35,841 bases of DNA from a virus: positions 1-35,841 of IMG/VR virus record IMGVR_UViG_3300045988_115891. One strand, 5' to 3'. Below are positions 2,329 through 24,890 of this stretch, one piece after another. Both the position numbers and the translations under genes were made by a program. The notes under the pieces are model-generated. The model had not been told where the DNA came from. It made no database searches and worked only from the letters and a program-made list of their open reading frames with translations. Positions within the stretch are counted from its first letter, which is position 1, and the number at the start of each line of letters is the position of its first letter.

Positions 2329-2940
2329 ATGGCGGTACTCGTTATGATTTACGGTCAGAGCGGCACAGGAAAGTCAACAAGCTTGCGTAATTTTACGAAT
2401 GACGAAGTTGCGGTTATCAACGTATCGGGCAAGCCGTTGCCGTTCCGAAGCAAACTGACGACTTACGATACGGATAATTACGCAAAAATATCCAGTGCGC
2501 TCGGCAAAATCGAGAGAAAGTCTATCGTTATTGATGACGCAACGTATCTGATGGTAAACGAATTTATGCGAACGGCAAAAGTCGCAGGGTATCAGAAATA
2601 TACTGATATGGCGGTAAACTTTAACTCGCTTGTTGCACAGGCTTCACAGCTTGCAAACGACAAAATTGTATACTTTCTCGGGCATTCTGACCTCAAGGAC
2701 GATGGCACAGAGCATTTTAAAACTATCGGCAAAATGCTTGATAACTATGTCACGGTTGAGGGAAAATTTACTATCGTGCTTAAAACGGTTGTGCAGGACG
2801 GAAAATATTATTTTTCGACACACAACAGCGGACAGGACACGGTAAAATCTCCGCTCGGTATGTTTGCGGATAATTATGTTGACAACGATTTGAAAGCCGT
2901 TGATGCGATTATCCGTGAGTATTACGGGATAGGGGGCTAA
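2329..2940 (+). CDS. Sak4-like / AAA_24-type RecA-fold ATPase (single-strand annealing accessory)
   Basis: Walker A GQSGTGKST and Walker B VIDDATYL. The size (about 200 aa) and position next to an SSB-like gene fit this family. RBS AAGGAG. Confidence 0.7.
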   Translation: MAVLVMIYGQSGTGKSTSLRNFTNDEVAVINVSGKPLPFRSKLTTYDTDNYAKISSALGKIERKSIVIDDATYLMVNEFMRTAKVAGYQKYTDMAVNFNSLVAQASQLANDKIVYFLGHSDLKDDGTEHFKTIGKMLDNYVTVEGKFTIVLKTVVQDGKYYFSTHNSGQDTVKSPLGMFADNYVDNDLKAVDAIIREYYGIGG

Positions 2941-5004: not shown

Positions 5005-5484
5005 ATGGTCTACGAATGGAAAGATTTAGCGTCTGTGCGAAACATTAAGGCAGATGCACAGGTAGCAGGAGAAGTTTGCGAGGAACTGGAGCGAGAAGGG
5101 CGTTTAACGCCTGAAAATCTCGTTGAAGTGAGCAAAGACGAAAACGCACCGCTACATAACGAATTTGAATGGAATGATGCCACAGCGGCGAAGAAATACC
5201 GCCGTTCGCAAGCGCAGTTTATCATTCAAATGCTCGTTGTAAAATCGTCCGATGATGAGGAAGAAGAAAAGAAGCCGCCTGTAAGGGCGTTCTTCGCTAT
5301 CGACAGGGAACGCAGAAGTTATGAAAGTGTTGTGTCGATACTGGAAAGCAAGGATAAAACAGCTACTCTGCGTGAGCAGGTAGTTAAAGAACTTGCTTGC
5401 TTTTACGGCAAATATCAGGCAATTTTTGACGGCGATTTGGCGAAACTCGGCGAGGAGATACGCAATGTCATTACTCCCGATTGA
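5005..5484 (+). CDS. hypothetical protein (159 aa)
   Basis: ATG at 5005 is preceded by AAAGGAG (4989..4995). The upstream in-frame extension from 4834 is Arg/Gly/Trp low complexity read out of the repeat island. Confidence 0.65.
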   Translation: MVYEWKDLASVRNIKADAQVAGEVCEELEREGRLTPENLVEVSKDENAPLHNEFEWNDATAAKKYRRSQAQFIIQMLVVKSSDDEEEEKKPPVRAFFAIDRERRSYESVVSILESKDKTATLREQVVKELACFYGKYQAIFDGDLAKLGEEIRNVITPD

Positions 5485-5983
5485 GCAAGAGCAAGCTTTA
5501 GAAACGCTGACAATTCTTGTCGATACAAGGGAACACGAAACAGCCGAAGCAGTCCGTAGATGGTCTGCTTTTGGCAAGCCGTGGCGAAAAGAGAAGCTTG
5601 ACAGCGGAGATTATTCCGCAGAACTTCTCTTGCCGAGTGGCGAAACTTGGCGTGTGCCTTGCGTTATCGAAAGGAAAATGAATTTGTCGGAAATCTGCGG
5701 TAATTTTGGCACGAACCGAGGACGGTTTATCCGAGAATTTGAGCGGATAAAAGAAAGCGGCTTGAAATGCTATCTGCTGATAGAAAACGATAGTTGGGAA
5801 AATGCGTATGCAGGGCGATACAAGTCGCTGATGAAGCCGAAAGCCCTCATATCGAGTTTAACGGCGTGGTCGGCAAGATACAACGCTCATATCGTGTTTT
5901 GCAAAGACCGCACGACACCAAAATTGATAGCGGAGATATTGTACCGAGAAGCAAAGGAGATTTTGAAAAATGGCGATTGGTGA
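5465..5983 (+). CDS. ERCC4/Mus81-type structure-specific nuclease (putative junction resolvase)
   Basis: Motifs VDTREH, SGDY and IERK are in the order typical of ERCC4 nuclease domains. ATG at 5465 follows GAGGAG. Confidence 0.65.
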   Translation: MSLLPIEQEQALETLTILVDTREHETAEAVRRWSAFGKPWRKEKLDSGDYSAELLLPSGETWRVPCVIERKMNLSEICGNFGTNRGRFIREFERIKESGLKCYLLIENDSWENAYAGRYKSLMKPKALISSLTAWSARYNAHIVFCKDRTTPKLIAEILYREAKEILKNGDW

Positions 5984-7380: not shown

Positions 7381-7947
7381 GTGATTTACGAGTACATAGC
7401 GGAAGAAATCAAAGCACGGGTTAAAATAGGCGATGTGCTTTTTATGTATGGCTTTTCGGCAAGCCCAAACAGCAAAAAGAGAATACCCTGCCCGTTGCAT
7501 AACGGCAAGGATAACAATTTTAGTTTTACGGACAAAATATATCACTGCTGGGTCTGCGGAGAACACGGTGATGTGATAAGCCTTGTTTGCAAGCTATTCG
7601 GCTTATCTTTTGCCGAAGCTTGCGTAAAGATAAATCTTGATTTCGGGCTTGGCTTGCCGTGCGGAGAGAAAATGTCGTTGCGTGATAAATACAGACTTGA
7701 CAAAAAGGCAAAAGAACGCAAGGCAATAGCTCTTGCAGAAAAAGCAGAAACCGAACGAATTAACAATGAATTTTGGGATGCCTTGCACGAGTGGAGCAGG
7801 CTTGACAGACAGTTTCGTGAACATAAACCAAAATCGCCCGATGAGCCATTACACCCGTTATTTGTAGAAGCGTTGCAGAAAATCGGCTATGCCGAATATA
7901 GACTTGACATAGCAGAAATGAGGAAAAACAAAAATGATGGACGATAA
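7381..7947 (+). CDS. CHC2 (DnaG-type) primase zinc-finger protein
   Basis: GTG start 8 nt after AAGGAGG. Motif CPLHNGKDNNFSF...YHCWVCGEHGDVISL is the CHC2 zinc-finger signature. Confidence 0.75.
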   Translation: MIYEYIAEEIKARVKIGDVLFMYGFSASPNSKKRIPCPLHNGKDNNFSFTDKIYHCWVCGEHGDVISLVCKLFGLSFAEACVKINLDFGLGLPCGEKMSLRDKYRLDKKAKERKAIALAEKAETERINNEFWDALHEWSRLDRQFREHKPKSPDEPLHPLFVEALQKIGYAEYRLDIAEMRKNKNDGR

Positions 7948-9403
7948 CCGCATACAGACTATCACCGCTCCCGAGCAGCTATTTGACACAGAGTTGCTTC
8001 TTGATGTGTTCGATGAGGGAAATCCGCCCGAAGAGCAGGCAAGAATTGTGTCTGTGATGAGCATAAAAGCAAGAATGCTCGGCGTGTACAAAGAGTTTGC
8101 GACAACGATAAAAGCGTTTCAGAAAGCGCAACAAAAGTTAGCTAACGAATATCAGCGGATAAATGCAAAGCAGAACGGCGGTATGATTTTAGACTTTGCG
8201 AGTGACGGAAAACCGCTTGCAACGATTGACAATTTTGTGCAGGTAATCGAAAACGACAGCAAGTTTGATAATCTGCGGTTTAATCTGCTGACAGAAAGCC
8301 CCGAAAAAATAATTGACGGCAAAGCGGAGCGTTGGACAGATGCGGACGATGCAGAATTACGGCGGTACATAGAAAAGAAGTATAAGTTCCACTCGGCGCA
8401 GAAAAGCGATGATGCGTTGAGGATAGTCCTCAAAGGTAGACAGTATCACCCGATAAGGCAGATGATAGACCGCTTTGAGTGGGACGGCGTAAGCAGGATA
8501 AACACATTCCTCACGAAATGGACGAAATGCGATGATAACGAGTATACACGAGAAGTATCACGTTTAATCTTTTCGGGCGGTATACATCGGCTGTATAATC
8601 CCGGCTGTAAATTTGACGATATGGCGGTTTTCATCGGCACAAGGCAGGGAGAAGGCAAGTCAACGCTGATACGGTGGTTAGCTTTAGACGATAAGTATTT
8701 TACAGAGGTTTCCGAGTTTGACGGTCAGAGGGGTATAGAAGCCCTTGAGGGAGCGTGGATTTGTGAAGTAGGTGAAATGCTTGCTATGGTAAAAGTACAG
8801 CAGCAGGAAGCGGTTAAAGCATATCTGACACGCATTAACGATAAGTACCGCAAGCCATTTGATAAGCGTGTGACAGAACACCCTCGGCAGTGTATCTTCA
8901 TCGGTACTACAAACAAAGCGCAGTTTCTCACTGACAAGACAGGCAACCGCAGATTTTACCCTGTTGTCGTACATCAATCGGGATATGACCTGTTTGAACA
9001 CGAAGAAGAAATCAAAGCAGATATAAAGCAGTGCTGGGCTGAAGCGTTGCACTTGTTCAAAGAAAACAAACTTCTGCCGTATGCCGACCGCAAACTGATT
9101 GATGTTATCCGCAAGGAACAGGCAAACGCTGTTGAAGATGATTACCGTATCGGTATGATTACCGAGTACTTGAATAGCAAGTCAGAGGTGTGTGTTTTGC
9201 AGATATGGCAACACGCTTTAAATATGGGCGAGTTTTCCAAGCCGACAAAAAAAGATAGTCAAGAAATCGGCTTGATAATGCAGAACCTTGAAAACTGGAA
9301 AAAACAGCCGTATCCGAAAACTTTCGCAGGGTTCGGCTCACAGCGTTGGTGGCGCAAAGAGGGCTGTGCGGACATAGATAGTTTTGATGATATAGACCTT
9401 TAA
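7934..9403 (+). CDS. VirE / D5-like primase-helicase (P-loop NTPase)
   Basis: Walker A GTRQGEGKST and a downstream FIGTTN...NRRFYPV pattern typical of VirE-family replication proteins. It is 489 aa and overlaps the upstream zinc-finger gene by 14 nt. Confidence 0.75.
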   Translation: MMDDNRIQTITAPEQLFDTELLLDVFDEGNPPEEQARIVSVMSIKARMLGVYKEFATTIKAFQKAQQKLANEYQRINAKQNGGMILDFASDGKPLATIDNFVQVIENDSKFDNLRFNLLTESPEKIIDGKAERWTDADDAELRRYIEKKYKFHSAQKSDDALRIVLKGRQYHPIRQMIDRFEWDGVSRINTFLTKWTKCDDNEYTREVSRLIFSGGIHRLYNPGCKFDDMAVFIGTRQGEGKSTLIRWLALDDKYFTEVSEFDGQRGIEALEGAWICEVGEMLAMVKVQQQEAVKAYLTRINDKYRKPFDKRVTEHPRQCIFIGTTNKAQFLTDKTGNRRFYPVVVHQSGYDLFEHEEEIKADIKQCWAEALHLFKENKLLPYADRKLIDVIRKEQANAVEDDYRIGMITEYLNSKSEVCVLQIWQHALNMGEFSKPTKKDSQEIGLIMQNLENWKKQPYPKTFAGFGSQRWWRKEGCADIDSFDDIDL

Positions 9404-9407
9404 CGGC

Positions 9408-9683
9408 GAAAATCACTACAAAGCACCCCGAAAATCTACTTTGTAGTGGACTTTGTAGAGGACTTAGTAGAGGTCACAAAACCGCTCTACAAAGCCATTT
9501 TCCCTTAGTTAAACTACAAACTCTACAATAAATTGAGTATTTATATAAAATAGGGAATAAAAAATAAAAATGTATTTTTATATTTTATGCAAACTTTGTA
9601 GAGTTTGTAGTGATTTTCCGAAAAACCGCATAGCAAAGCCAAAAACAAGCACTACAACGAAAAAACTACATTGTAGTTTGTAG
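9408..9683. repeat. array of CTACAAA / TTTGTAG heptamers with nested inverted repeats around a 67-bp A/T-rich core (candidate origin or operator array)
   Basis: CTACAAA-type heptamers at 9416, 9436, 9487, 9514, 9523, 9652 and 9666. TTTGTAG-type at 9440, 9452, 9464, 9595, 9604, 9670 and 9677. A perfect 12-bp IR pairs 9408..9419 with 9607..9618. Confidence 0.85.
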
Positions 9684-9700
9684 AGAAAGAAGCTGAAACA

Positions 9701-11956: not shown

Positions 11957-11976
11957 TTTTAGGAGGAAAAATCACA

Positions 11977-12105
11977 GTGACGATTGACGAAGCAAAGGAA
12001 ATCATCAGAAAAACGAAAAGCCCGTATCTGAAAAGAGATATGGAGAAGTTTATTAAACGCACTCAGAAAAAGCTAAAAGAAAAAGTTTTGCAGAAAGGAG
12101 ATTAA
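11977..12105 (+). CDS. small basic protein (42 aa, GTG start)
   Basis: GTG lies 8 nt after AGGAGG. The track ORF start at 11851 would overlap the radical SAM gene and span the terminator. Confidence 0.4.
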   Translation: MTIDEAKEIIRKTKSPYLKRDMEKFIKRTQKKLKEKVLQKGD

Positions 12106-12108
12106 ACA

Positions 12109-12453
12109 ATGCCAAATGCACAGAATTTAAAGCCAGGAGCTTACAAGCTGTCAAAGGAAGAAATGGCGAAAGGTGGAAGAAACTCACATAAAAAGATGAG
12201 GGAGCGAAAGCTCCTTCGTGAGTGCCTTTCCGAACTTTTGCAGATGGAATATGACACGAAGCAAGGAAAGAAACTCGGCAGTGAAATGTTGTCGGCGATG
12301 CTGATGAAAAAAGCGATGAGCGGAGACATCAAGGCTTTTGAGGTTCTCCGTGACACAGCAGGAGAAAAGCCAGTTGATAAAGTTATGGTCGCAGATGTTG
12401 AAAAGACTATCATTGACGAAGTGGAAAAAATGGTAAAAGATGAAACCGATTGA
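12109..12453 (+). CDS. putative terminase small subunit
   Basis: 114 aa with a basic N-terminus, upstream of TerL. RBS AAAGGAG. The call rests on position and general resemblance only. Confidence 0.45.
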   Translation: MPNAQNLKPGAYKLSKEEMAKGGRNSHKKMRERKLLRECLSELLQMEYDTKQGKKLGSEMLSAMLMKKAMSGDIKAFEVLRDTAGEKPVDKVMVADVEKTIIDEVEKMVKDETD

Positions 12454-13408
12454 ATTATGGCACGGTGATTGTCTTGAATTGATGAAAGATATTCCTGATG
12501 GCTCGGTGGATTTGGTGCTGACTGACCCGCCGTATGGCACTACAGCTTGCAAATGGGATAGCGTTATTCCTTTTGAGCCGATGTGGGAACAGTTGAAACG
12601 CATTGTAAAAAGAGGAGGTACAATTGTTCTCTTTGGTAGCGAGCCTTTTTCAAGCCTGTTAAGAGCAAGCAATATTGACTGGTACAAATACGACTGGATT
12701 TGGGAGAAAGAACAAAGTTCAGGCGGATTGCAAGCCAAAATTGCACCGATGAAAAAGCACGAAAATATAAGTGTGTTTTTTCAAACGCCAACAGACGATA
12801 CAACAAATGCCTATCAATCTTTGAAAGAGTATTTTCAGTCCGAAAAGAAAAAAAGCGGGTTAAACTCAAAACAAATTAAAGAGTTGCTCGGTAACTATAT
12901 GGCACGCCATTATTTCACAAATGGGTCGCAGTTTTGCATACCATCGGAAGAAAACTATAAAAAACTGCAAAGCACAGGATTTTTTCAGACTCCATTTGAA
13001 GAAATAAAAAAGCAATATAAAGAAGATTGCCAAAACACATACAATCCGCAAATGATGGTTGGTAAACCATACAAAGGTCATTTTGCACCAGGCGCAGAGG
13101 TGCATGGAAAGGCAACTCATTATGTAAAAGATAATGACGGCATAAGATACCCTACAAGCGTTTTAAGGTTTAATAGGGCAAAAAGGTTGCACCCAACACA
13201 AAAGCCAGTTGACTTGCTTGAATATCTTATCCGTACATACACTAATGAGGGAGAAACTGTCCTTGACTTCACAATGGGAAGCGGTAGCACTGGCGTCGCT
13301 TGCGTGAACACTAATCGCCGCTTTATCGGCATTGAACTTGATGAGGGATATTTCAACACCGCAAAAAAGAGGATTGAGGAAGCCTATGACAAGAGAACAA
13401 GCGGTTAA
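12440..13408 (+). CDS. beta-class N4/N6 DNA methyltransferase
   Basis: Motif IV DLVLTDPPYG lies near the N-terminus. HPTQKPVDLL and motif I FTMGSGSTGVAC lie near the C-terminus, the circular-permutation order of the N-4/N-6 MTase family. Confidence 0.85.
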   Translation: MKPIELWHGDCLELMKDIPDGSVDLVLTDPPYGTTACKWDSVIPFEPMWEQLKRIVKRGGTIVLFGSEPFSSLLRASNIDWYKYDWIWEKEQSSGGLQAKIAPMKKHENISVFFQTPTDDTTNAYQSLKEYFQSEKKKSGLNSKQIKELLGNYMARHYFTNGSQFCIPSEENYKKLQSTGFFQTPFEEIKKQYKEDCQNTYNPQMMVGKPYKGHFAPGAEVHGKATHYVKDNDGIRYPTSVLRFNRAKRLHPTQKPVDLLEYLIRTYTNEGETVLDFTMGSGSTGVACVNTNRRFIGIELDEGYFNTAKKRIEEAYDKRTSG

Positions 13409-14654
13409 ATTTTTGCTTGAACAGCCTGCAAAATTCGGGGCGATGATAGGATTCGACAAGCTGACCGATTTGCACAACAAATGGATAATCGAGATGATAA
13501 GAGGTGACGGCGACAAGACTTTGCAAGCCCACCGTAACTCTTATAAAACAACCTGCGTTTCAATTGCCCTTGCGATAATTATTATTCTGCTTCCGACACG
13601 CCGAACAATGTTTATGCGTAAAACGGATTCGGACATAAAGGAAATCGTTAAGCAGGTACAGAAGATATTGCAAGACGAACATACAATATATTTTGTCCAG
13701 TCGATATACGGCGTTAATCTGAAATTGACGGTTGCAACGGCGACAGAAGTTTCAACGAATTTAAGCGTTGACACAAAAGGTACATCGCAGCTTGTCGGCA
13801 CTGGTTGCGGCGGCTCGATAACTGGTAAGCATTTTGACTTTATCTTCACGGACGATATTGTCAACGTGCAAGACCGAGTATCGAAAGCCGAGCGTGACAG
13901 GACGAAGCTGATTTATCAAGAGTTGCAGAATATCAAAAACAGGGGCGGCAGAATATTTAACACAGGCACTCCGTGGCACGCAGACGATTGTTTTACGATT
14001 ATGCCAACTCCCGAAGTTTATGACTGCTATTCAACAGGGCTTCTCACCGCCGAGCAGATAGAGGAGAAAAAGCAGTCAATGACCGCTTCCCTGTTTGCCG
14101 CAAACTATGAGTTAAGGCATATCGCCGCTGAGGACGTTATTTTCACAAGTCCACAGATAAATGCGGAGCCTTGCAACGTTGAACAGGGCGAAGGACATAT
14201 TGATGCCGCTTACGGCGGTGAAGATTACACTGCGTTTTCTATCGTTCGAAAAACAGACGGCAAGTATTACGTTTTAGGCAAGCTGTGGCGAAAGCACATT
14301 GACGATTGCCTTGATGAAATCCAGTCGCTCCGGCAAGCGTTTAATGCAGGAAAGATTTTTTGTGAAGATAACGGCGATAAGGGATATTTGGCAAAAGAAC
14401 TCCGCAGGCGTGGCGAAAGAGCCGTTCTGTATCACGAAAATATGAATAAATTTCTGAAAATCACGTCCTATCTGAAAGCAGAGTGGAACAACGTGATTTT
14501 TGTTGCAGGAACGGACAAAGAGTTTATCAATCAGATTTGCGACTATAACGAAAATGCGGAACACGATGACGCACCCGATAGTGTCGCAAGCCAGATAAGA
14601 AGGTTATGGAATAAAAAAGATACGGTATCAACGTATCAATCAATTTTGAGGTGA
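13386..14654 (+). CDS. terL: terminase large subunit
   Basis: Deviant Walker A HRNSYKTT, Walker B FDFIFTDDIV, coupling motif NTGTPWH, and nuclease acidic motifs IDAAYGGED, CEDNGDKG and HDDAPDS. ATG at 13386 follows GAGGAAG. Confidence 0.85.
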   Translation: MTREQAVKFLLEQPAKFGAMIGFDKLTDLHNKWIIEMIRGDGDKTLQAHRNSYKTTCVSIALAIIIILLPTRRTMFMRKTDSDIKEIVKQVQKILQDEHTIYFVQSIYGVNLKLTVATATEVSTNLSVDTKGTSQLVGTGCGGSITGKHFDFIFTDDIVNVQDRVSKAERDRTKLIYQELQNIKNRGGRIFNTGTPWHADDCFTIMPTPEVYDCYSTGLLTAEQIEEKKQSMTASLFAANYELRHIAAEDVIFTSPQINAEPCNVEQGEGHIDAAYGGEDYTAFSIVRKTDGKYYVLGKLWRKHIDDCLDEIQSLRQAFNAGKIFCEDNGDKGYLAKELRRRGERAVLYHENMNKFLKITSYLKAEWNNVIFVAGTDKEFINQICDYNENAEHDDAPDSVASQIRRLWNKKDTVSTYQSILR

Positions 14655-14657
14655 TTT

Positions 14658-16064
14658 ATGAAAACATATCAAGATTTGCTCGCCCTCGGTGAAAATGAGG
14701 AAAGCCGTAAAACGTTTATAATTGACGCAATATATGAGCACAAATGCTCCAGTGCGTTTGCTACGGCTGTAGATGCTCACGGTTATTACAAAGGCTTAAA
14801 CCCTACGATTATGAAGTATGAAAAGATTATCTATGATTTACAGGGTATCGCTCACAATGACGAGTGGACGGCTAATCACAAGATAGCTTCAAACTTTTTT
14901 AATTTTGCCGTTACACAGGAAAACCAGTATCTGCTCGGCAACGGTGCAGTTTTTGGCAACGACAGCACGAAAGAAAAACTCGGCAAGAATTTTGATGAAA
15001 CGTTGCAGGAGTTAGGCAAATACGCACTTGTAAGCGGTGTATCTTTCGGATTGTGGAATTTAGACCACATTGAAGCGTTTGATTTAACCGAATTTGTACC
15101 GCTGTACGATGAAGAAAACGGGGCATTAAGAGCAGGAGTACGCTTTTGGCAGATAGACAGCGACAAGCCGCTAAGAGCAACACTTTACGAAGAGGACGGT
15201 TATACCGACTATATCCGCAGGAAAAACAGCAAGGTTGAAACACTGCAAGAGAAGCGACCGTACAAGCTGAAAACAAGGACTTCTGCGGTTGACGGCGAGG
15301 TTATTTATGACGGTGAAAATTATCCCGACTTCCCGATAATTCCGCTATGGGCAAACGATAAAAAGCAGTCGGAGCTTGTCGGCAGAAAAGGCACGCTTGA
15401 CGCATTTGATTTACTGAATAGTAACCTTGTGAATAATCTCGATGAAGCAAATTTCATTTACTGGGTTATCTCGAATTGCGGCGGTATGGACGATGTTGAC
15501 GATGCTAAATTCATCGAAAGGCTGAAAACAATGCACGTTGCACACGTTGACGGGGATAATGTAAACGGTGCAAATGTACAGGCGAACACAATTGATGTTC
15601 CGTATCAAGCAAGCGAAACGGCGATAAGTGCGATAAAAAGCAGATTGTACGAAGACTTTATGTGCTTAAACATTGCGGACATTTCGGCAGGAAACAAAAC
15701 CGCAACAGAAATTCGTGCGGCATATCAGCCGTTAGACAGCAAGTGCGATATGTACGAGTATTGCATTGACACGTTTATCCGCAAGCTGTTTACTTTAATC
15801 GGAATTGACGATACTGTATCGTTTAGACGGTCAAAAATTATTAACCAGTCTGAGGAAGTGCAGATGATATTATCTGCGGCAGAGTACCTTGACGCTGATA
15901 CAGTAACAGAGCAAATTTGCCAAATACTCGGTATGGGTGATAAAGCGGAAGAAATTATCCGCAAAAAGCAGGACGAAAACACAGCCCGATATGCTGATAT
16001 GCTCGCACAGCAGACAGCGAACGAGGGAAACAGCGGAGGAGCTGACGAACAGGGGGCTGAATAA
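14658..16064 (+). CDS. portal protein
   Basis: 468 aa, immediately after TerL. RBS GAGGTG. The size and acidic C-terminus are typical of SPP1-type portals. Confidence 0.75.
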   Translation: MKTYQDLLALGENEESRKTFIIDAIYEHKCSSAFATAVDAHGYYKGLNPTIMKYEKIIYDLQGIAHNDEWTANHKIASNFFNFAVTQENQYLLGNGAVFGNDSTKEKLGKNFDETLQELGKYALVSGVSFGLWNLDHIEAFDLTEFVPLYDEENGALRAGVRFWQIDSDKPLRATLYEEDGYTDYIRRKNSKVETLQEKRPYKLKTRTSAVDGEVIYDGENYPDFPIIPLWANDKKQSELVGRKGTLDAFDLLNSNLVNNLDEANFIYWVISNCGGMDDVDDAKFIERLKTMHVAHVDGDNVNGANVQANTIDVPYQASETAISAIKSRLYEDFMCLNIADISAGNKTATEIRAAYQPLDSKCDMYEYCIDTFIRKLFTLIGIDDTVSFRRSKIINQSEEVQMILSAAEYLDADTVTEQICQILGMGDKAEEIIRKKQDENTARYADMLAQQTANEGNSGGADEQGAE

Positions 16065-17002
16065 TGGACGCTCTTGCAACCGCACACGCCGCAACGGATA
16101 AAGCCCTTGACGCAATGGAAAAATACGTTAGGTCAATTTATCTGCGGTCGGTGCGTGAAATTTATAAGTCGTGGCAAAAGTTTTTTGAACAGGAACGCAA
16201 GGAAATTGACAAACTGCAAGAGGACTACGAAAAAGCAAAAAAGAGCGGAGATAAAACGCTGACAAAAAAAGCGGGAATTGCACTTGCGAGAGAAAAGAAA
16301 AAAGAAACTGTGCAAAATAAATGGTTTAGCGACACGGTAAAACAAACGGCTGAAAATCTGCTCCACGTCAACGAAACTGCGGTATCGTACTTGAACGGCA
16401 GACTTCCCGAAACGTATGTGACAAATTTTAATGCGGTCGGAGAATTATGCGAAAGCGCAATTACTGGATATTCTTACCATATCGTTGACGAAAATACCGT
16501 TCGTGAACTTGCAATGTCGGATACAAGTCTTTTGCCGTATAAAGAAATTGACCCCGTGAAAGACATTGCGTGGAATGTGCGGCAGATGAAAAGTGAAGTG
16601 CTACAAGGGATTTTGCAAGGCGAAGATATGCAAGCAATAGCGAGCAGGCTGTCAAACGTAATCGGTATGAATGAGAACTCTGCTGTCAGAAACGCTCGGA
16701 CAATGGTTACTTCTGCCGAAAACAAAGGAAGGCAAGACGGATTTTATCAAGCTGAAGAAGACGGCATTATCCTTGAAAAGTATTGGCTTTGCGTCCACGG
16801 CGAGAGGACGAGAGAAGCACACGCCGCCGCAGGAAATGATTATTCAAAGTCAAAATCCATTCCGCAAAGTCAGCCGTTTATCGTAGGCGGTGAAAAGCTG
16901 ATGTTTCCAGGCGACAGCAGTATGGGAGCGAGCGGTTGGAATTTGTACAATTGCCGTTGCTCCGTTGCGGCGGTAGTCAAAGGGTTTCGCAAAGTCGATT
17001 GA
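16064..17002 (+). CDS. head morphogenesis protein (Mu F / SPP1 gp7-like)
   Basis: It follows the portal gene. The pattern ARTMVTSAENKGRQDG...HGERTREAH matches the Mu F-like family. Confidence 0.7.
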   Translation: MDALATAHAATDKALDAMEKYVRSIYLRSVREIYKSWQKFFEQERKEIDKLQEDYEKAKKSGDKTLTKKAGIALAREKKKETVQNKWFSDTVKQTAENLLHVNETAVSYLNGRLPETYVTNFNAVGELCESAITGYSYHIVDENTVRELAMSDTSLLPYKEIDPVKDIAWNVRQMKSEVLQGILQGEDMQAIASRLSNVIGMNENSAVRNARTMVTSAENKGRQDGFYQAEEDGIILEKYWLCVHGERTREAHAAAGNDYSKSKSIPQSQPFIVGGEKLMFPGDSSMGASGWNLYNCRCSVAAVVKGFRKVD

Positions 17003-17026
17003 TGAAAGCAAGGTGAAAGTTAAGCT

Positions 17027-17482
17027 ATGGGTGTTAAAGTAACAAGTAAAGATAACACAGACGAAGTGCTTGACCGTATGGAAAAGGCTTTTGAACGTGG
17101 CTTAAAGGCTTGCGGAATGACCGCAGAAGCATATGCAAAAGACACGCTTACCGACCAAGTATACAGTGTTGACGAAAGCAAGCTTGACTATGTGCTGACA
17201 GGCAGACTGCGAAACAGCATAACTTACGCTATCGGGGGCAAGTCTGCCGCCATAAGCAGTTACAAAGCTGATAAGCCAGGCTATAAAGGCGGCTCTTATT
17301 CGGGCAATGCACCCGAGGAAGATAAGCCATACGTTGCAGTAGGTACGAACGTAAAGTATGCTATCGGCATTGAAGAAGGAACGCATCGTAAAAAAGGAGC
17401 AGTGCATTTTCTGTTGAAAGCGGCTTCCGGACATCAAGAAGAGTACGAAAAGCTGATAAAAGAAAGCATGGAAAACGCTTGA
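17027..17482 (+). CDS. hypothetical virion-module protein (HK97 gp10-like TGRLRNSI motif)
   Basis: ORF-track ORF. The motif LTGRLRNSITY is reminiscent of gp10-family proteins. Confidence 0.45.
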   Translation: MGVKVTSKDNTDEVLDRMEKAFERGLKACGMTAEAYAKDTLTDQVYSVDESKLDYVLTGRLRNSITYAIGGKSAAISSYKADKPGYKGGSYSGNAPEEDKPYVAVGTNVKYAIGIEEGTHRKKGAVHFLLKAASGHQEEYEKLIKESMENA

Positions 17483-17507
17483 CAAAAAAGAAAAAATTGT
17501 ATATAAT
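17479..17507 (+). promoter_or_regulatory. sigma-A type promoter TTGACA-17-TATAAT
   Basis: TTGACA 17479..17484, 17-bp spacer, TATAAT 17502..17507. Confidence 0.75.
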
Positions 17508-17524
17508 GAGAATCGAGGTAAGAT

Positions 17525-17659
17525 ATGCAAGAAATACCGATAAAATGTAACTGTGGAAAACTCGTTGCGAAATGGCGTGACGGTAAGTTATATGTGTGGT
17601 GTAAGTCTTGCAAACGGGAGTTTGAAATCCCGATACCAAAATTGAAAAGCAAAAGATGA
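17525..17659 (+). CDS. Com-like zinc-ribbon protein (44 aa); not in the ORF track
   Basis: Hand translation: MQEIPIKCNCGKLVAKWRDGKLYVWCKSCKREFEIPIPKLKSKR. RBS GAGGTAAG. It has its own promoter and terminator. Confidence 0.6.
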   Translation: MQEIPIKCNCGKLVAKWRDGKLYVWCKSCKREFEIPIPKLKSKR

Positions 17660-17665
17660 GCCATT

Positions 17666-17698
17666 GAGCCGTAGGAAATAACTCCTGCGGCTCTTTTT
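17666..17698 (+). terminator. intrinsic terminator after the Com-like gene
   Basis: 11-bp stem 17666..17676 / 17683..17693, 6-nt loop, then TTTTT. Confidence 0.75.
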
Positions 17699-17765
17699 AT
17701 CTTTTGTGAAAAAAATACATCAAATGGCAACGAAAAGCCACCGAAGAAAAGGAGAATGTATAAGT

Positions 17766-18332
17766 ATGGCACTTTCAAGAAGAATGCTGAAGGCAATGGG
17801 CATTGAAGAGGAAAAAATAGAACAGATTATCGAAGCACACGCCGAAACCGTTGACACGTTAAAGGAACAGCGTGATACCTTAAAGGCTGACGCAGATAAG
17901 CTGTCAGAAGTGCAGAAAGAACTTGACGAAGCGAAAAAGAGCCTTGAAGACGCAGGCAAGGACAGTTACAAAGTCAAGTATGAAGCTGTCAAAGAGGAAT
18001 TTGAAAACTACAAGTCGGACGTTGAAAACAAGGAGAAGCACACCGCAAAAGAAGCGGCTTACCGTGATATGTTAAAGGCGGCAGGAGTTTCCGAAAAGCG
18101 TATCGACAGCGTGTTAAAGGTTTCAGACGTTGACAGCGTGGAACTGGACGAAAACGGCAAAATCAAGGACAATGATAAGCTGACGGAAAGCATAAAAACA
18201 GAATGGGCGGACTTTATCACCGCCGAGGGTACAAAGGGAGCGAACGTTCCTACCCCCCCCTCGAAAAACGGAGAAAGCGACCCGAATAAAATGACTTTCG
18301 CCGAGTACAAAGAATGGCGAAAGAATAATTGA
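17766..18332 (+). CDS. scaffolding protein
   Basis: ATG at 17766 follows AAAGGAG. The protein is highly charged coiled-coil (EEKIEQIIEAHAETVDTLKEQRDTLKAD...) and lies immediately upstream of the capsid gene. Confidence 0.7.
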   Translation: MALSRRMLKAMGIEEEKIEQIIEAHAETVDTLKEQRDTLKADADKLSEVQKELDEAKKSLEDAGKDSYKVKYEAVKEEFENYKSDVENKEKHTAKEAAYRDMLKAAGVSEKRIDSVLKVSDVDSVELDENGKIKDNDKLTESIKTEWADFITAEGTKGANVPTPPSKNGESDPNKMTFAEYKEWRKNN

Positions 18333-18352
18333 CGAAAGGAAAACTGAAAATT

Positions 18353-19450
18353 ATGGCAAACACAATTTTAACCCCTCAGGTAATTGCGAACGAAGCACTG
18401 ATGGTGTTACAGGCTAATCTCGTAATGGCTGACCTTGTTCACAGAGACTACTCAAACGAGTTTGTGAAGGTCGGCGATACCATCACAATTCGTAAGCCTG
18501 CAAAATTTATTTCAAAAAACTTCACAGGCACGACCTCGACACAGGATATAACAGAAGGCTCGACAACTGTAAAGCTTGACAGATACCGTGACATTACGGT
18601 TGATGTTACGAGCAAGGAAATGACACTTGATATAAAGGACTTTTCCGAGCAGGTAATCGCTCCCGCAATGCAGGCTCACGCAGAAGCCGTTGACGCAGAC
18701 CTCCTCGCAGTAGCGGCAAGCAAGGCAGGTAAGACTATTTCCGCAACCGCAAATCCCACAAACCTTAAGGATATTGCGGATATTGCAAAGACGCTTGACC
18801 TTGCAAAAGTACCCGTACAGAACAGAAGGCTCGTCCTGCACCCTACACATAAGTACGCATACGCTCTGACCGATAATCTCTCAAAGGTAAGCTATGCCGG
18901 CGACAATCAGACGCTTCGTGACGCTCTGCTTGGACGTGTTTACACACTTGACACATATATGGACCAGAACGCACCTGATACTTACGCTGAAACAGCAGGC
19001 ACAGCGACAGGCTACAAGGTATCTGCAACAGCAGGCGCAACAACTGTTAAGCTGACAGGCGTTACAGCGGCAACAGGCACGATTAAGAAGGGTGATGCCT
19101 TTATCGTTGACGGATATATCTATCACTTTGAAGCTGATGCAACAGCGGCAAGCGGTGAGGTAGCAAGCGTTGCTATCGACCAGCCTGTACACGCAACACT
19201 GACCGAAGCAGTGGCAACACTCGTAAAGAAGCCTCATTCGGTAGCGTTCCATAGAAACGGTCTTGCACTCGTTACAAGAAACCTCGAACTGCCTATGGGT
19301 GCAGCTAATGCGGCAATTGCTTCCGCAGACGGTCTTGCAGTAAGAGTTGTTTACGGCTACGACATGGAGCATAAAAAGGATACAATTTCATTTGATATTC
19401 TTTACGGTATCAAAGACCTTGACGACAACATGATTGTTGCACTTGCGTAA
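18353..19450 (+). CDS. major capsid protein (P22-coat/gp5-like family by N-terminal motif)
   Basis: MANTILTPQVIANEALMVLQANLVMADLVHRDYSNEF...GDTITIRKP is a pattern I recognise from this capsid family. 365 aa. Confidence 0.8.
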   Translation: MANTILTPQVIANEALMVLQANLVMADLVHRDYSNEFVKVGDTITIRKPAKFISKNFTGTTSTQDITEGSTTVKLDRYRDITVDVTSKEMTLDIKDFSEQVIAPAMQAHAEAVDADLLAVAASKAGKTISATANPTNLKDIADIAKTLDLAKVPVQNRRLVLHPTHKYAYALTDNLSKVSYAGDNQTLRDALLGRVYTLDTYMDQNAPDTYAETAGTATGYKVSATAGATTVKLTGVTAATGTIKKGDAFIVDGYIYHFEADATAASGEVASVAIDQPVHATLTEAVATLVKKPHSVAFHRNGLALVTRNLELPMGAANAAIASADGLAVRVVYGYDMEHKKDTISFDILYGIKDLDDNMIVALA

Positions 19451-19471
19451 ACGATGAAAGGACGGCGTGAT

Positions 19472-19900
19472 ATGCTGACGGAATTATGTAGAGAGTGTCG
19501 CAACTGGTTCACAACCGACAGCGACAAGCACAGCGGTGACTTTACAATTTCAGACGGCGGTATCACGCCGTTTGATTTTATACTGAGCGGGCAGTATTTC
19601 CGTATTATGGGAAGTCACTTCAATGACGGGGTTTATAAAAACGTTCCCGAAGAAGTCGCAAAACTGGCGGCTGAAACGTTTACAGGGCAGATATGGGCGA
19701 TGCGTATTCCTCCTGCGTTTATCGACCTATCGGGGAGGATTGAAGAGTATATCGCAAAAAATGAAAAAGAAATTTCTCCGTACACATCGGAAAGTTTCGG
19801 CGGCTACAGCTACACAAAAGCGGTAAACGATAAAAACGTTCCGCTGATGTGGCAAGAAGTTTTCAACAGCCAGTTGAAAGTTTGGAGGAAAATAATATGA
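19472..19900 (+). CDS. putative head-tail connector/adaptor protein
   Basis: The call rests only on its position directly after the capsid gene. The start could be 19454 or 19472. Confidence 0.4.
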   Translation: MLTELCRECRNWFTTDSDKHSGDFTISDGGITPFDFILSGQYFRIMGSHFNDGVYKNVPEEVAKLAAETFTGQIWAMRIPPAFIDLSGRIEEYIAKNEKEISPYTSESFGGYSYTKAVNDKNVPLMWQEVFNSQLKVWRKII

Positions 19901-20250
19901 GTTTACTAAGCGAAGCAATGACCGATTGCGTGTTTTTAAACAAAAGCAAGGTTTCAGACGGTGAGGGCGGTTTCGTGGTAGAATGGACAGAAGGTGCTTC
20001 TTTTAAGGCGGCGATTGTTTTTGACAATTCAATGGAAGCCCGTACTGCCGAAAAGGCAGGGGTTACAAGTCTTTATACGGTTTCTGTTCCCATTTCGGTG
20101 GCGATTGAGTACCACGATGTTTTCAAACGCCTGTCGGACGGCAAGATTTTCCGTGCCACATCTGACGGTGACGATAGCAAAACTCCTGCAAGGGCTACAT
20201 TCCAAATCGCCCAGTTCACCGCTGAGGAGTTTGTGCCGACTACAAAGTAG
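19897..20250 (+). CDS. putative head-closure / head-tail adaptor protein
   Basis: ATGA overlap with the upstream gene. RBS GGAGGAAAA. About 117 aa, with a beta-rich sequence typical of SPP1 gp16-like proteins. Confidence 0.5.
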   Translation: MSLLSEAMTDCVFLNKSKVSDGEGGFVVEWTEGASFKAAIVFDNSMEARTAEKAGVTSLYTVSVPISVAIEYHDVFKRLSDGKIFRATSDGDDSKTPARATFQIAQFTAEEFVPTTK

Positions 20251-20445
20251 GCATTTTTCGGGCATTGTAGTGGGAAATGTAGTAGACTTTGTAGAGGCGT
20301 TAAAGTGGCTCTACGACTGGCTTTAAGGGGAGTTAAACTACAAACTCTACAAAATTTTTTATATTTATATAAATAGGAGATTTTTTTATAAAAGTAAATT
20401 TTATATTTATAGAAAACAATGTAGTTTTTGTAGTTTGTAGTAGAG
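20240..20445. repeat. second, paralogous CTACAAA / TTTGTAG heptamer array with an A/T-rich core
   Basis: Heptamers at 20240, 20264, 20276, 20288, 20311, 20338, 20347, 20418, 20427 and 20434. The 22-nt AGTTAAACTACAAACTCTACAA at 20331..20352 is identical to 9507..9528. Confidence 0.85.
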
Positions 20446-20460
20446 AACGGGGGTTAGGAA

Positions 20461-20832
20461 ATGACAAAAGCGGCGGCACTGCATAGCTTTTATAGTTCGT
20501 TCGGGCTGACAGCTTATGAGGAAAACGCCGTCCCCGATGATGCAGAGTTTCCATATATTACTTACAACGTTACAACCGACAGCTTCGGGAATTATTCGAC
20601 CGCAATGACCTTCTCGTTGTGGTATCGTTCGACAAGCTGGAAAGCGATAAATGCAAAGTGCGAGGAAATCTCAGCGGCGATAGGCTTAGGAGGTCAGCTG
20701 ATAGACTGTGACGGCGGTAAGATATGGATTAAGAGAGGACAGCCGTTTGCAAACTCGACAGGTGACGCAGATGACGAACTGATAAAAAGAAAGATTATAA
20801 ACGTGAGTGCGGATTATCTCACGTTAAACTGA
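20461..20832 (+). CDS. putative tail completion/terminator protein
   Basis: Position between the head-closure gene and the major tail gene; 123 aa. Confidence 0.4.
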   Translation: MTKAAALHSFYSSFGLTAYEENAVPDDAEFPYITYNVTTDSFGNYSTAMTFSLWYRSTSWKAINAKCEEISAAIGLGGQLIDCDGGKIWIKRGQPFANSTGDADDELIKRKIINVSADYLTLN

Positions 20833-20850
20833 CGAAAGGATAAGCAAATA

Positions 20851-21477
20851 ATGGGAAAATTTACGGTTATACCGAAAGCCACGTTTGACGATTTACAGCT
20901 TGACGCAGGTGTGCTGCTGAGAAATTTCACTCCCGCAACAGCTGCTGCACCGCAGGATAGCGATATTATCTGCGCTACGACAGGCGGTATAAATGCGACT
21001 TGCACGCCGACTTACAGCGACTTAGGCGAGGACGTGGACAACTGCCCGAACAATATGAAGGAATTAAAGCACCTTGACGGTTGGGATTGCACGCTTGCTT
21101 TTACATCGCTCGGAATGAGTACAGCGGCAATAAAGATGGCACTCGGCAGTGCGGATATTGACACGCAGGACACGACAAAGGTCACACCGAGAAGAGATTT
21201 AAAGCAGTCTGACTTCTCGGACGTATGGTGGGTAGGAGATAAAGCTGACGGCGGTATGGTCGCTATACAGCTTAAAAACGCCCTCTCGACAGGCGGTTTT
21301 TCGTTACAGACAACCAAAAGCGGCAAGGGTCAGATTTCCGTTACGCTGACGGGTCATGTGTCGATTGACGCACAGACCGAAATGCCTATGGTGTTTTACT
21401 CGACAAGCGGTACAGCAGAAGCAACACAGGCTGACAGCGGTACTGACAGCGGAGCAGAAAGCGACCCTACAGTTTAA
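20851..21477 (+). CDS. major tail protein
   Basis: 208 aa, directly upstream of the frameshifted chaperone pair. RBS AAAGGA. Confidence 0.65.
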   Translation: MGKFTVIPKATFDDLQLDAGVLLRNFTPATAAAPQDSDIICATTGGINATCTPTYSDLGEDVDNCPNNMKELKHLDGWDCTLAFTSLGMSTAAIKMALGSADIDTQDTTKVTPRRDLKQSDFSDVWWVGDKADGGMVAIQLKNALSTGGFSLQTTKSGKGQISVTLTGHVSIDAQTEMPMVFYSTSGTAEATQADSGTDSGAESDPTV

Positions 21478-22787: not shown

Positions 22788-22823
22788 AAAGTTAGCAAAT
22801 ACGAGGTGGAAAGGAAGAATAAA

Positions 22824-23327
22824 ATGTATTACAAAATTAAAGGTTTTGAAAATTACGGTATTAATCGAGATGGTGTTGTTTGCAACACAGATAATGGTGC
22901 CATCAAATCCCCTTATACAAACAAGTCAAACGGGTATTTGTATGTTGATTTATACAAGAGGAACAAGGCACACAAAAGACCGATTCACAGATTGATTGCA
23001 GAAACCTTTATCCCGAACCCCGAAAACAAACCGACCGTTGACCACATAAATGGCAACAGAACCGACAACCGAATTGAAAATTTGAGATGGGCAACATATA
23101 GTGAGCAAAACTCAAGATTTAACACGGTGGGAGTAAGAAGTGAAAAGGTTCTTGTCGTACACGAAAGTGGTAAAACAATGATGTTTGAAAAAATTACAGA
23201 TGTTGCCAACTATTTTGATTGCAATATAAGTAATATAAGCCAAATGCTTAAAAAAGGAACTTTTGGTAAGCGTGGAAAAACAAGGGGTTATAAATTTGAA
23301 TACATAAGGCAAAATAAAAATGTGTAA
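22824..23327 (+). CDS. HNH homing endonuclease (NUMOD4-like N-terminus plus HNH_3-type core)
   Basis: Motifs YKIKGFENYGINRDG... and VDHINGNRTDNRIENLRWAT. ATG at 22824 follows AAGGAAG; the track start (GTG at 22806) is less likely. Confidence 0.85.
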   Translation: MYYKIKGFENYGINRDGVVCNTDNGAIKSPYTNKSNGYLYVDLYKRNKAHKRPIHRLIAETFIPNPENKPTVDHINGNRTDNRIENLRWATYSEQNSRFNTVGVRSEKVLVVHESGKTMMFEKITDVANYFDCNISNISQMLKKGTFGKRGKTRGYKFEYIRQNKNV

Positions 23328-23483
23328 CGACTATCCCGAAAGGGAGTACAGCCAAGCGGCTGGAAGTGCAAGGCTCTGTTATCGGGAAACCGATAGCCAA
23401 AGAGATAGTCTGCTCTTTATGGTGACATAAAGCAGTTCATAAGAGAACGGGTACAGCGTAGCGAACTGTATCGAACATAAATG

Positions 23484-24890
23484 TATGGTGGCACTAAGGA
23501 AGAAATGGCTCGATTAATCGCTGACGCATCAAAAATGACCAATGTGCAAAAGGAACTTGGCGTAACGGTTGACGGTACGGATATGTCGTTTGCAAACATT
23601 GTAAACGCAATCCACGTTGTGCAAGCAAATCTTGACATTATGGGTACGACATCGAAAGAAGCGTCAACAACAATACAAGGCTCTATCAGCAGTATGAAGT
23701 CGGCGTGGGAAAATTTGCTTGTAGGCATAGCGGACGATAAGCAGGACTTCGGCAAGCTGATTGATAACTTTGTTGACAGCGTTGCAACGGTCGGTAAAAA
23801 CATAATGCCGAGGCTGAAGAAAATCCTTAAGGGAGTAGCAAAGCTAATAAAGGAAATCGTTCCCGAAGTGGCAAAAATGCTTCCCGAAATCGTAAACGAT
23901 ATTCTCCCCGACCTTGCAAATGCGGCGGTTGACATCGTTAAAGGGCTTGTTGACGCTTTAGTAGACAACGCAGACACGCTGTTAGATACCGGTATCAAAA
24001 TCCTTGACACGATAATCAACGGCATAATCGAATGTATACCAAAAATTAAAGATTTAATTCCCACGATTATAAACGCAATACTCCGCATAATTGATGTTTT
24101 AACAGAACACCTTGATGAGTTTATTGAGGGCGGTATACAGATAGCACTTGCGTTGTTAGACGGTATAATTCAAGCAGTACCGAAAATCCTTGAGAAGTTA
24201 CCCGAAATTTGCCAAAAAATAATTGACGGTGTTTTACAGGGCTTGTTCGGACTTGACGAAGGCGTGTCAAACACGTTCAGCACGGCTTTTGGGGGTGCCG
24301 TAGGTGGCGCGATTGAGATAATCAAGGGCATTTTATCGTTCTTAAACGGTGACTTTAGCACAGGACTTAAAAGTGCGGGCGAAGGTCTAAGCAATATTGT
24401 AGGCGGCGTTCTCGGAATCATTGACGGCTTGCTTGGAACAAGTTTGTCGCAATGGTATGACGATACAAGAGCATTTTTTAATCAATTTGGGCAGGATTTG
24501 TACAACATGACGCACCAGATGGAGCTTGCGAAACTTGAGGAAGGCGAACGTTTACAAGAGCAGACAAGCGGAGTAGGAATTACTGCAAACGAGTATATGC
24601 GACAGGGTTTAGCGGCGGCTGATGCTTTCGCAAAGGCTCTAAGCGATAAAGGCATAAACGAAGCGATATGGCAGGAAGCTGTTGAAAAGGGTATCGTCAC
24701 TTATGATGTAAACGAAGCGTACCAAACGTTAAAGGAGACAGGGCAGATAAAGACCGCAACAGCCGAAGGAACGTCAAATCAGATAAATGTGTCAATGAAA
24801 TTGCATAACGGTGTCGAGCTGGCAAGAGCGACAGCATATGATAATAGCAAGGCAAATCGTGTTGCGGGCAGGCAGATACCTGCGTACTAA
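23484..24890 (+). CDS. tail tape measure protein, exon 2
   Basis: It begins YGGTKEEMARLIADASKMT... in frame with exon 1 after splicing. The apparent ATG at 23481 consists of the last three intron nucleotides. The C-terminal part is repetitive and helical. Confidence 0.8.
   Translation, partial: YGGTKEEMARLIADASKMTNVQKELGVTVDGTDMSFANIVNAIHVVQANLDIMGTTSKEASTTIQGSISSMKSAWENLLVGIADDKQDFGKLIDNFVDSVATVGKNIMPRLKKILKGVAKLIKEIVPEVAKMLPEIVNDILPDLANAAVDIVKGLVDALVDNADTLLDTGIKILDTIINGIIECIPKIKDLIPTIINAILRIIDVLTEHLDEFIEGGIQIALALLDGIIQAVPKILEKLPEICQKIIDGVLQGLFGLDEGVSNTFSTAFGGAVGGAIEIIKGILSFLNGDFSTGLKSAGEGLSNIVGGVLGIIDGLLGTSLSQWYDDTRAFFNQFGQDLYNMTHQMELAKLEEGERLQEQTSGVGITANEYMRQGLAAADAFAKALSDKGINEAIWQEAVEKGIVTYDVNEAYQTLKETGQIKTATAEGTSNQINVSMKLHNGVELARATAYDNSKANRVAGRQIPAY

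Follow-up and report, generated by a model that had tools for sequence, protein, structure and literature searches.

A second origin-type repeat array, retained between head-tail connector genes of an uncultured tailed phage, as a putative binding site for its SaPI1 Rep1-like helicase

The IMG/VR virus record IMGVR_UViG_3300045988_115891 (positions 1 to 35,841; hereafter the window, meaning the whole stretch of 35,841 nucleotides analysed here) is a complete circular phage genome of ~35.8 kb, in which bases 1-55 are repeated at 35787-35841. It carries two arrays of TGTAG/CTACA pentamers. Array 1 lies directly downstream of the gene for a homologue of Rep1, the initiator-helicase of Staphylococcus aureus pathogenicity island 1 (SaPI1), and array 2 sits 10.8 kb from array 1 on the 35.8-kb circle, between two head-tail connector genes. 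On comparative sequence evidence, array 2 is probably an origin-type element bound by this helicase (here called Rep), whether it fires or not, and binding of Rep to both arrays is quite likely. The proposal that array 2 truly loads Rep and can fire as a second origin is more tentative, somewhat short of probable. It nevertheless ranks first among the readings considered here, followed by occupancy by Rep without firing and then by a role as a transcription control module. The elements at the centre of this argument are the following.

9404..9700: array 1, canonical origin-type element in a 297-bp gap; its repeats begin 13 nt past the helicase stop codon
20236..20460: array 2, second complete origin-type element
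7381..7947 (+): small primase-type protein with a CHC2 zinc ribbon, 188 aa (Pfam PF01807 Zn_ribbon_DnaG, E = 2e-10; PHROG primase families)
7934..9403 (+): superfamily 3 (SF3) helicase-initiator of the SaPI1 Rep1 family with a VapE-like domain, 489 aa (Pfam PF05272, E = 6e-63); its start (7934) is overlapped by the primase-type gene

The two arrays follow a common plan, in which TGTAG/CTACA pentamers in opposite orientation surround a core of 64-66 bp that is 86-91% A+T (genome-wide A+T, 56%), with further pentamers outside these. Array 1 contains 12 pentamers and array 2 contains 9, arranged as follows.

Array 1, outer left: CTACA at 9416; TGTAG at 9442 and 9454; degenerate TTAGTAG at 9464-9470 (12 nt apart); CTACA at 9487
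Array 1, inner left pair: CTACAAACTCTACA at 9514-9527
Array 1, core: 9529-9594, 86% A+T
Array 1, inner right pair: TGTAG at 9597 and 9606
Array 1, right extension: CTACA at 9652 and 9666; TGTAG at 9672 and 9679
Array 2, leftmost: CTACA at 20240, within the last codons of the upstream gene
Array 2, outer left: three direct TGTAG at 20266, 20278 and 20290 (xxTGTAG heptamers at 20264, 20276 and 20288), 12 nt apart
Array 2, inner left pair: CTACAAACTCTACA at 20338-20351, within CTACAAACTCTACAAA, which spans 20338-20353
Array 2, core: 20354-20417, 64 bp, 91% A+T
Array 2, right: TGTAG at 20420, 20429 and 20436 (AATGTAG at 20418, TTTGTAG at 20427 and 20434)

The right extension of array 1 has no counterpart in array 2. 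The non-coding gap that holds array 2 measures 210 bp (20251-20460, from the stop codon at 20248-20250 to the next ATG at 20461). Because the leftmost repeat, ACTACAAAG at 20239-20247, overlaps the end of the upstream coding sequence, the element starts at ~20236 and not at 20251. A stretch of 22 nt is identical between the arrays (9507-9528 = 20331-20352), and the two aligned gaps have a mean column identity of 73%, with the parts in the same order. The preliminary description of this region, which was made from the sequence alone, had proposed that the gap repeats the architecture at 9404..9700; this was borne out, and its coordinates for the gap, the heptamers, the tandem pair, the core and the 22-nt identity were all confirmed.

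The repeat pattern of both arrays is well beyond chance. TGTAG/CTACA pentamers reach a density of 40 per kb within the arrays, compared with 1.4 per kb in the rest of the genome (Poisson p = 6e-11 and 3e-14), and the heptamer TTTGTAG occurs 17 times in the genome against 5.9 +/- 2.4 expected, a count reached in 0 of 100 shuffles; 13 of these 17 copies lie within the two arrays. The inner repeats form a long imperfect palindrome, with single-strand fold z-scores of -3.9 and -6.1. A search against Rfam at gathering and E-value thresholds gave no match in either array and lends no support to a known RNA element. A motif shared by array 1 and the arrays of a sister lineage, AGCCAAAAA, was dropped from consideration, as it is not enriched in the window (17 copies versus 21.7 expected). 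The left ends of the arrays (9414-9447 and 20239-20272) each contain a small inverted repeat, ACTACAAAG ... CTTTGTAGT. The ~15-nt spacer between these leftmost inverted repeats, CCCGAAAAT, has opposite orientation in the two arrays, as if flipped by recombination across the inverted repeats.

Both sequence and predicted structure connect the helicase with a known initiator. In a phmmer search against all Protein Data Bank sequences, the sole match was 7PDS (E = 3e-49, helicase residues 133-414), which is the SaPI1 Rep1-DNA complex (PMC9371898). An AlphaFold model built on 44 homologues (mean predicted local distance difference test score, 82.6) also had 7PDS as its top Foldseek match (E = 4e-26, template modeling score 0.62-0.70, ~455 columns), far better than NrS-1, the primase-polymerase of African swine fever virus, the mpox virus E5 helicase or SaPI5 PriRep5. 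At the C terminus, the model places helices at residues 404-413, 421-428 and 439-451 and strands at 418-420 and 455-475, such that the last 85 residues are predicted to form a helix-strand-helix-helix arrangement plus a beta wing, that is, a winged-helix-like unit at ~404-475. We conclude that the helicase is, by sequence and predicted fold, a full-length homologue of the self-loading initiator-helicase SaPI1 Rep1. More than 7,000 homologues of the helicase were found. Among 44 homologues, the wing motif QPYPK(T/K)F..G(S/N)QRWW occurs only in the two lineages with TGTAG repeats, and the same C-terminal region reads K.KR...GVQ in phages with GTTACA-type repeats and TPKNY..GKQ in a phage with GGAACAA repeats. 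Such clade-specific wing residues are as expected if the C-terminal domain of the helicase reads the repeats, and the helicase is most likely the protein that binds TGTAG, presumably through this winged-helix domain.

We gathered relatives by retrieval based on the large terminase (TerL) and on the helicase. In six further Rep1-like lineages, whose helicases are 58-66% identical to that of the window, the same array layout directly follows the helicase stop codon, built on four other repeat sequences:

GTTACA: L127/L168/L190, L267 and L268
GGTTACA: L176
GTTTACA: L178
GGAACAA: L266

TGTAG is retained in the sister lineage (L096 and its relatives), whose helicase is 66-68% identical. The repeat sequence changes with the helicase lineage. 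Arrays with differing repeats share, within their A+T cores, a short G+C block, TCTCGCG(C/T)GTA (L132 4238-4436, L135 683-966, L137 5661-5792 and L193 14160-14185). The TGTAG arrays lack this block, which may be a shared site of action of a primase or of some host factor. The surroundings of array 1 are a hot spot of gene insertion among close relatives: one extra open reading frame (ORF) lies between helicase and array in L122 (4344-5290), and ~2 kb are inserted past the array in L124 (4733-7000), where the array's rightmost repeats have been lost.

Array 2 has no counterpart at its locus outside the two TGTAG lineages, which together form the clade considered here. In the window, it is preceded by genes for the large terminase, an SPP1-type portal (the relatives' portal is assigned to Pfam SPP1_portal), a head-morphogenesis protein, a scaffold and the major capsid protein. 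The large terminase gene, the flanking genes and the tail gene beyond them lie as follows.

13332-14654: large terminase gene
19849..20250 (+): flanking gene 5' of array 2, 133 aa, phrog_17977, head-tail connector region
20461..20832 (+): flanking gene 3' of array 2, 123 aa, phrog_17405 head/connector protein
20851-21477: major tail protein, following the phrog_17405 gene

In ~60 relatives outside the TGTAG clade, among them the next closest lineage by the downstream protein (L260-L265), the two flanking genes have homologues that overlap or are separated by 0-40 nt. By this distribution, array 2 was inserted between the head-tail connector genes in an ancestor of the clade.

The retention of array 2 was assessed with a strict two-anchor pattern, which replaced a scan with a 15-nt pattern whose matches were mostly due to chance and useful only after BLAST filtering. 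The strict pattern placed the element in 27 IMG/VR contigs. Among the 18 clade contigs of at least 30 kb, 16 have exactly two matches, one per array type, and in the remaining 2 array 2 is present but one base off the pattern; all 18 therefore keep both arrays, and none has three. Across 2.9 million viral contigs and 185,579 genomes, a scan with the exact pattern found the element only in this clade and always at the same two loci. The co-occurrence of both copies in relatives, which the preliminary description had put forward as a check, thus holds in every near-complete member of the clade, with no member reduced to a single copy.

Within the sister lineage, 18 distinct array 2 sequences are variable in 1 of 45 pentamer columns versus 76 of 191 other columns (Fisher p = 8e-8), a pattern that identifies the array 2 pentamers as being under strong purifying selection. 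Comparison of the two TGTAG lineages gave similar identities between the two arrays of one genome (71% and 69%) and between orthologous arrays (66% and 73%), while the flanking proteins are only 51-66% identical between those lineages. Because unconstrained DNA is not alignable at that degree of protein divergence, the arrays themselves appear to be constrained, and by these identities arrays 1 and 2 are old paralogues that were already distinct before the lineages split. The identity matrix has no clear excess of within-genome similarity, and we make no claim of concerted evolution of the two copies. The only part of the arrays that looks lineage specific is the set of short core blocks.

In the reading best supported by these observations, the predicted C-terminal winged helix of the Rep1-like helicase would recognise the TGTAG/CTACA pentamers in both arrays. 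Rep hexamers would assemble on the oppositely oriented pentamers, load there and melt the A+T core. The clade ancestor gained the second copy between two connector genes, and all of its descendants have retained it. In its broader form, the proposal of the preliminary description, namely a second, paralogous origin-type array that belongs with the primase-helicase in a bipartite arrangement, is supported by the Rep1 homology, the lineage dependence of the repeats, the co-occurrence of the copies and the purifying selection.

The closest match in anatomy and initiator family is provided by the SaPIs. SaPI Rep is a self-loading helicase and initiator whose C-terminal winged helix reads penta- or hexanucleotide iterons, and the SaPI origin consists of 6-12 iterons immediately 3' of rep; its centre is AT-rich, and each side of the centre has two or more iterons, which point in opposite directions on the two sides (PMC9371898, which cites the SaPI1-type origin work of Ubeda et al. 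2007 and 2012). Array 1 agrees with this description in every respect and array 2 in all but position, 10.8 kb from rep; the opposed repeats are CTACA x2/core/TGTAG x2 in array 1 and CTACA x2/core/TGTAG x3 in array 2. As in SaPI1, a homologous initiator-helicase is preceded by a small, separate primase gene just 5', the repeats are pentamers, array 1 begins right past the rep stop codon, and both arrays have an A+T centre and opposed repeats. Unlike SaPI1, the window is a complete tailed-phage genome and not a satellite, and it has two arrays, the second of them 10.8 kb from rep among morphogenesis genes. The TGTAG repeat is also new, and the arrays contain a TATAA(A/T) hexamer, 16 nt from a repeat, that does not figure in the SaPI description. 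By anatomy and initiator family, the arrays thus classify as SaPI Rep1-type origins, of which array 1 is a plain new member.

For the presence of a second array among late genes, the closest parallel is the Bacillus phage SPP1, which has, besides oriL, a second origin, oriR, ~12-13 kb away that is bound by the same initiator and interrupts the morphogenesis genes (PMC6316719, PMC3485210). It has been proposed that the SPP1 initiator gp38, bound at oriR, stalls the fork from oriL and so brings about the switch to concatemer synthesis with a phage nuclease, annealase and resolvase (PMC6316719, PMC3485210). The window resembles SPP1 in having two similarly built arrays of initiator repeats and an A+T unwinding element, 10.8 kb apart here versus ~12-13 kb, the second of which interrupts the late morphogenesis gene order; it also has an SPP1-like morphogenesis module and recombination genes of its own:

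2329..2940 (+): Sak4-like single-strand annealing protein (phrog_2872, E = 1e-73), which might take part in recombination-dependent restart of replication should array 2 be a fork barrier
5393..5983 (+): ERCC4-type nuclease (phrog_3490, E = 3e-37), a possible processor of stalled forks or junctions

The two systems differ in their initiators, since gp38 is a separate protein that acts with the loader gp39 and the DnaB-family helicase gp40, whereas the candidate initiator here is an SF3 helicase; no match to a loader or a DnaB-family helicase was found among the window genes scanned. They differ also in the position of the first origin, which lies inside gene 38 in SPP1 and 3' of the helicase gene here, and in the context of the second, which in SPP1 is accompanied by three moron genes and lies between post-portal genes and the scaffold gene, whereas array 2 stands alone between connector genes. 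Because the initiator type and the first-origin position differ, the two-copy arrangement is an analogue of SPP1 oriL/oriR and not a member of that system. Arrays at the SPP1 oriR position itself, 5' of the scaffold gene, were observed in two other uncultured phage lineages (L193 14028-14310 and L195 7814-8008). They have the same design, in which GTTACA x3 and TGTAAC x3 surround a ~70-nt core. The 637-aa helicase-like protein of these lineages is not homologous to the Rep1-like helicase and is followed by no array; the late-region array of L193 was for this reason unusable as evidence of co-variation. Origin-type elements inside the morphogenesis module may be recurrent.

Two more distant systems also bear comparison. 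The alpha protein of satellite phage P4 is a fused primase-helicase of SF3 type whose C-terminal winged-helix domain binds the same short repeats at ori and at the cis replication region (crr), and crr is reportedly a repeat cluster that is not a start site and is required in cis. Common to P4 and the window would be an SF3-type replication protein with a C-terminal winged-helix domain, predicted in the window, that recognises one kind of short repeat at two sites separated by several kb; unlike crr, which is a repeat cluster only, array 2 duplicates the complete origin, its unwinding core included. The preliminary description had named P4 ori/crr as the closest analogy, a place that now goes to the SaPI Rep1-type origin for anatomy and to SPP1 oriL/oriR for a second origin in late genes. 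Herpes simplex virus has several palindromic origin copies (oriS and oriL), in which an A+T spacer lies between inverted sites for UL9, an SF2 helicase that is also the initiator. The likeness extends to multiple palindromic origins, the A+T spacer and inverted sites for a helicase-initiator; UL9 is nevertheless an SF2 helicase of a eukaryotic virus, with no sequence or family relationship to the helicase of the window.

The TATAA(A/T) hexamer mentioned above gives both arrays a promoter-like geometry at corresponding positions:

20346..20373 (+): promoter-like TCTACA-16 nt-TATAAA inside array 2
9522-9549: same TCTACA-16 nt-TATAAA geometry in array 1

TATAAA is found exactly 16 nt past the inner CTACA in 23 of 32 distinct arrays, several of the others have TATAAT at the same offset, and the geometry is seen in both array types and both lineages. 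In a scan for the sigma-70 consensus, the array 1 site scored 9/12, and array 2 was not called. This geometry might reflect a promoter embedded in the origin or a constraint on origin structure. Origins of T7 and T4 contain embedded promoters that give transcriptional activation or an RNA primer; by analogy, an origin-embedded promoter could supply either of these here and would be compatible with array 2 as a second origin.

Several considerations weigh against array 2 as an origin-type element bound by Rep and as a firing second origin. The case for contact between Rep and the arrays runs through homology and co-variation, and phylogeny partly confounds the co-variation of repeat and helicase C terminus, since overall relatedness likewise groups the helicases of the TGTAG clade together. 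A 36-kb phage has no obvious need for two origins, the SaPI origin is defined as adjoining rep whereas array 2 is distant from it, and no Rep1-type or SaPI-type replicon with two origins was found described in the literature searched. The conserved -10-like hexamer lies outside the published definition of the SaPI origin, and the arrays, or array 2 alone, could double as promoters. GC and AT skew give no origin signal, being positive along the whole + strand; the skew is uninformative here, however, because nearly all genes of the phage lie on that strand and coding-strand bias dominates. A closely related alternative, which we regard as less likely than not and rank somewhat below a second origin, is that Rep binds array 2 without firing and that the array acts as a fork barrier, a helper site or a transcription roadblock. 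In a variant modelled on SPP1 oriR, bound initiator would stall the fork from origin 1, nuclease and annealase would process it, and replication would pass from circle-to-circle to concatemer synthesis for headful packaging. In variants resembling P4 crr or plasmid handcuffing, array 2 would, respectively, be a cis enhancer needed for origin 1 firing through looping or limit initiation. Occupancy without firing draws on the published SPP1 model and the similar spacing (10.8 kb versus ~12-13 kb; PMC6316719, PMC3485210), on the annealase, the nuclease and the SPP1-type portal and head module encoded by the phage, and on the location of array 2 in the path of a fork co-directional with transcription. 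The divergence of the paralogues before the lineage split would fit non-identical roles, and the right extension is confined to array 1. Yet the SPP1 barrier model is itself only a proposal, and array 2 keeps the full origin anatomy, with an A+T core and conserved core blocks that would be superfluous in a mere barrier or repeat cluster. A more elaborate variant, which we consider unlikely, is that the second copy, instead of being a redundant start site, is a built-in timing device, in which Rep at array 2 would stall the origin 1 fork and also gate tail-gene expression by replication state. The stalled fork would then force the switch to recombination-driven concatemer synthesis, with bound Rep serving as a roadblock or the embedded CTACA-16-TATAA(A/T) as a switchable promoter.

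Alternatively, the arrays might be transcription control modules, each with a rightward promoter (A/T)CTACA-16 nt-TATAA(A/T) in the A+T core and with the pentamers as operator or activator sites; the regulator would be the helicase or another phage protein, and it would switch on two late transcription units, one with its start at 9701 and the other comprising the tail genes, from 20461 onwards. The only real support for this explanation is the -10-like TATAAA/TATAAT at exactly 16 nt from the inner CTACA in most of the 32 arrays; also in its favour are the 9/12 sigma-70-type site of array 1, the location of both arrays directly 5' of + strand genes in the same orientation, and the conservation of core blocks beyond A+T richness. 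We nevertheless regard it as quite unlikely. In the ~60 relatives that have no array 2, tail genes follow head genes gaplessly, so that a promoter is not needed there, and the array hexamers are poor beside the perfect TTGACA-17-TATAAT promoters found elsewhere in the genome, including its late region (9908 and 17479). The symmetric layout, with repeats past the putative start, is typical of origins and not of activated promoters; inspection by eye found no similar hexamer at this distance in the arrays of the other helicase lineages; and the tie to the helicase gene and the helicase lineage would go unexplained. The promoter or operator module raised in the preliminary description keeps some support from the -10-like TATAA(A/T) at a fixed 16 nt from the inner repeat. 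A mobile or recombinogenic palindromic element resembling a miniature inverted-repeat transposable element (MITE), or a packaging (pac) site, occurring twice by chance is very improbable. The long imperfect palindrome with its fold z-scores, the inverted spacer between the leftmost inverted repeats of the two copies, and similar arrays just 5' of the small terminase region in L142 and L183 could be read in this way. However, the element's distribution, confined to one clade and to the same two loci with never a third in all the contigs and genomes scanned, effectively excludes this explanation. Target-site duplications are not evident, the large terminase gene (13332-14654) adjoins neither array, and headful packaging with two pac sites separated by 10.8 kb would be unusual; the packaging site suggested in the preliminary description is thus left without support.

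We also considered the relationships and the host of the phage. Megablast of window positions 9000-21000 against cultured phages gave no match, and tblastn of the helicase against cultured phages gave at most 39% identity, with phages of Blautia, Faecalimonas and Clostridium among the matches; on these two results, there is no annotated close relative. The sole match in a genome collection (GTDB) is a near-complete relative with both arrays, L236/L237 (CAVKXW010000018.1, 34,190 bp), which was binned with a Bacteroidaceae metagenome-assembled genome. Consensus TTGACA/TATAAT promoters, together with the nearest cultured-phage helicases, suggest a Firmicutes host; these promoters argue against a host in the Bacteroidota, and the bin assignment may be wrong. 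No integrase was detected in scans of the window genes.

Several other elements of the genome were observed in the course of the analysis, as follows.

1608-1670 (+): match to the type-P5 twister ribozyme (Rfam, 48.1 bits versus a gathering threshold of 37.6, E = 3.6e-7), in the early region past a small ORF
4684-5005: 322-nt non-coding stretch, G-rich and C-poor, with ~60 NNGGN pentamers (such as CAGGT AAGGT CAGGT ACGGT) and no Rfam match, flanked by the ORF at 4030-4683 and by an ATG (5006) that has a good ribosome-binding site
17479-17507: perfect TTGACA-17-TATAAT promoter, followed ~160 nt on by a strong terminator-like hairpin (17666-17693) and by the scaffold gene at 17706; related promoter modules at 7166, 30315 and ~1260
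23207-23432 (+): sub-threshold group I intron match over the whole model (31.7 bits versus a gathering threshold of 50, E = 1.7e-4) in the tail region, where it spans the 153-nt gap that separates ORF 22806-23327 from ORF 23481-24890
5970-6410, 11133-11915, 12440-13408 and 33292-33819: MazZ-like dATP/dGTP diphosphohydrolase N-terminal domain (PF18909), radical SAM protein and two DNA methyltransferase-like genes

The NNGGN stretch might offer multiple protein-binding sites, as RNA or as DNA, or serve as some other cis element. The layout of promoter, leader and terminator at 17479-17705 suggests antitermination or attenuation control of the head genes, and the PF18909, radical SAM and methyltransferase-like genes hint at DNA modification or manipulation of the nucleotide pool.

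If array 2 is indeed an origin-type element, then a conserved 210-bp non-coding gap in a structural operon would be explained as a cis-acting replication element and not as a promoter-terminator spacer. The experimentally defined SaPI Rep1-type origin would extend to a large family of uncultured tailed phages, in which the repeat can be read directly 3' of the helicase gene. The clade would also provide a second, independent case of the little-understood oriL/oriR arrangement of SPP1, with a mechanistically different initiator, so that the role of a second origin in the late region, as a fork barrier with a theta-to-sigma switch or as a true second start, becomes testable by comparison. For phage engineering and genome minimisation, the array marks non-coding DNA that selection has preserved throughout the clade. 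Finally, if SPP1 (gp38/DnaB-type), this clade (SF3 Rep1-type) and L193/L195 (with a third kind of helicase) are truly independent, an origin-type element among the late genes may reflect a general, convergent rule of siphovirus replication.

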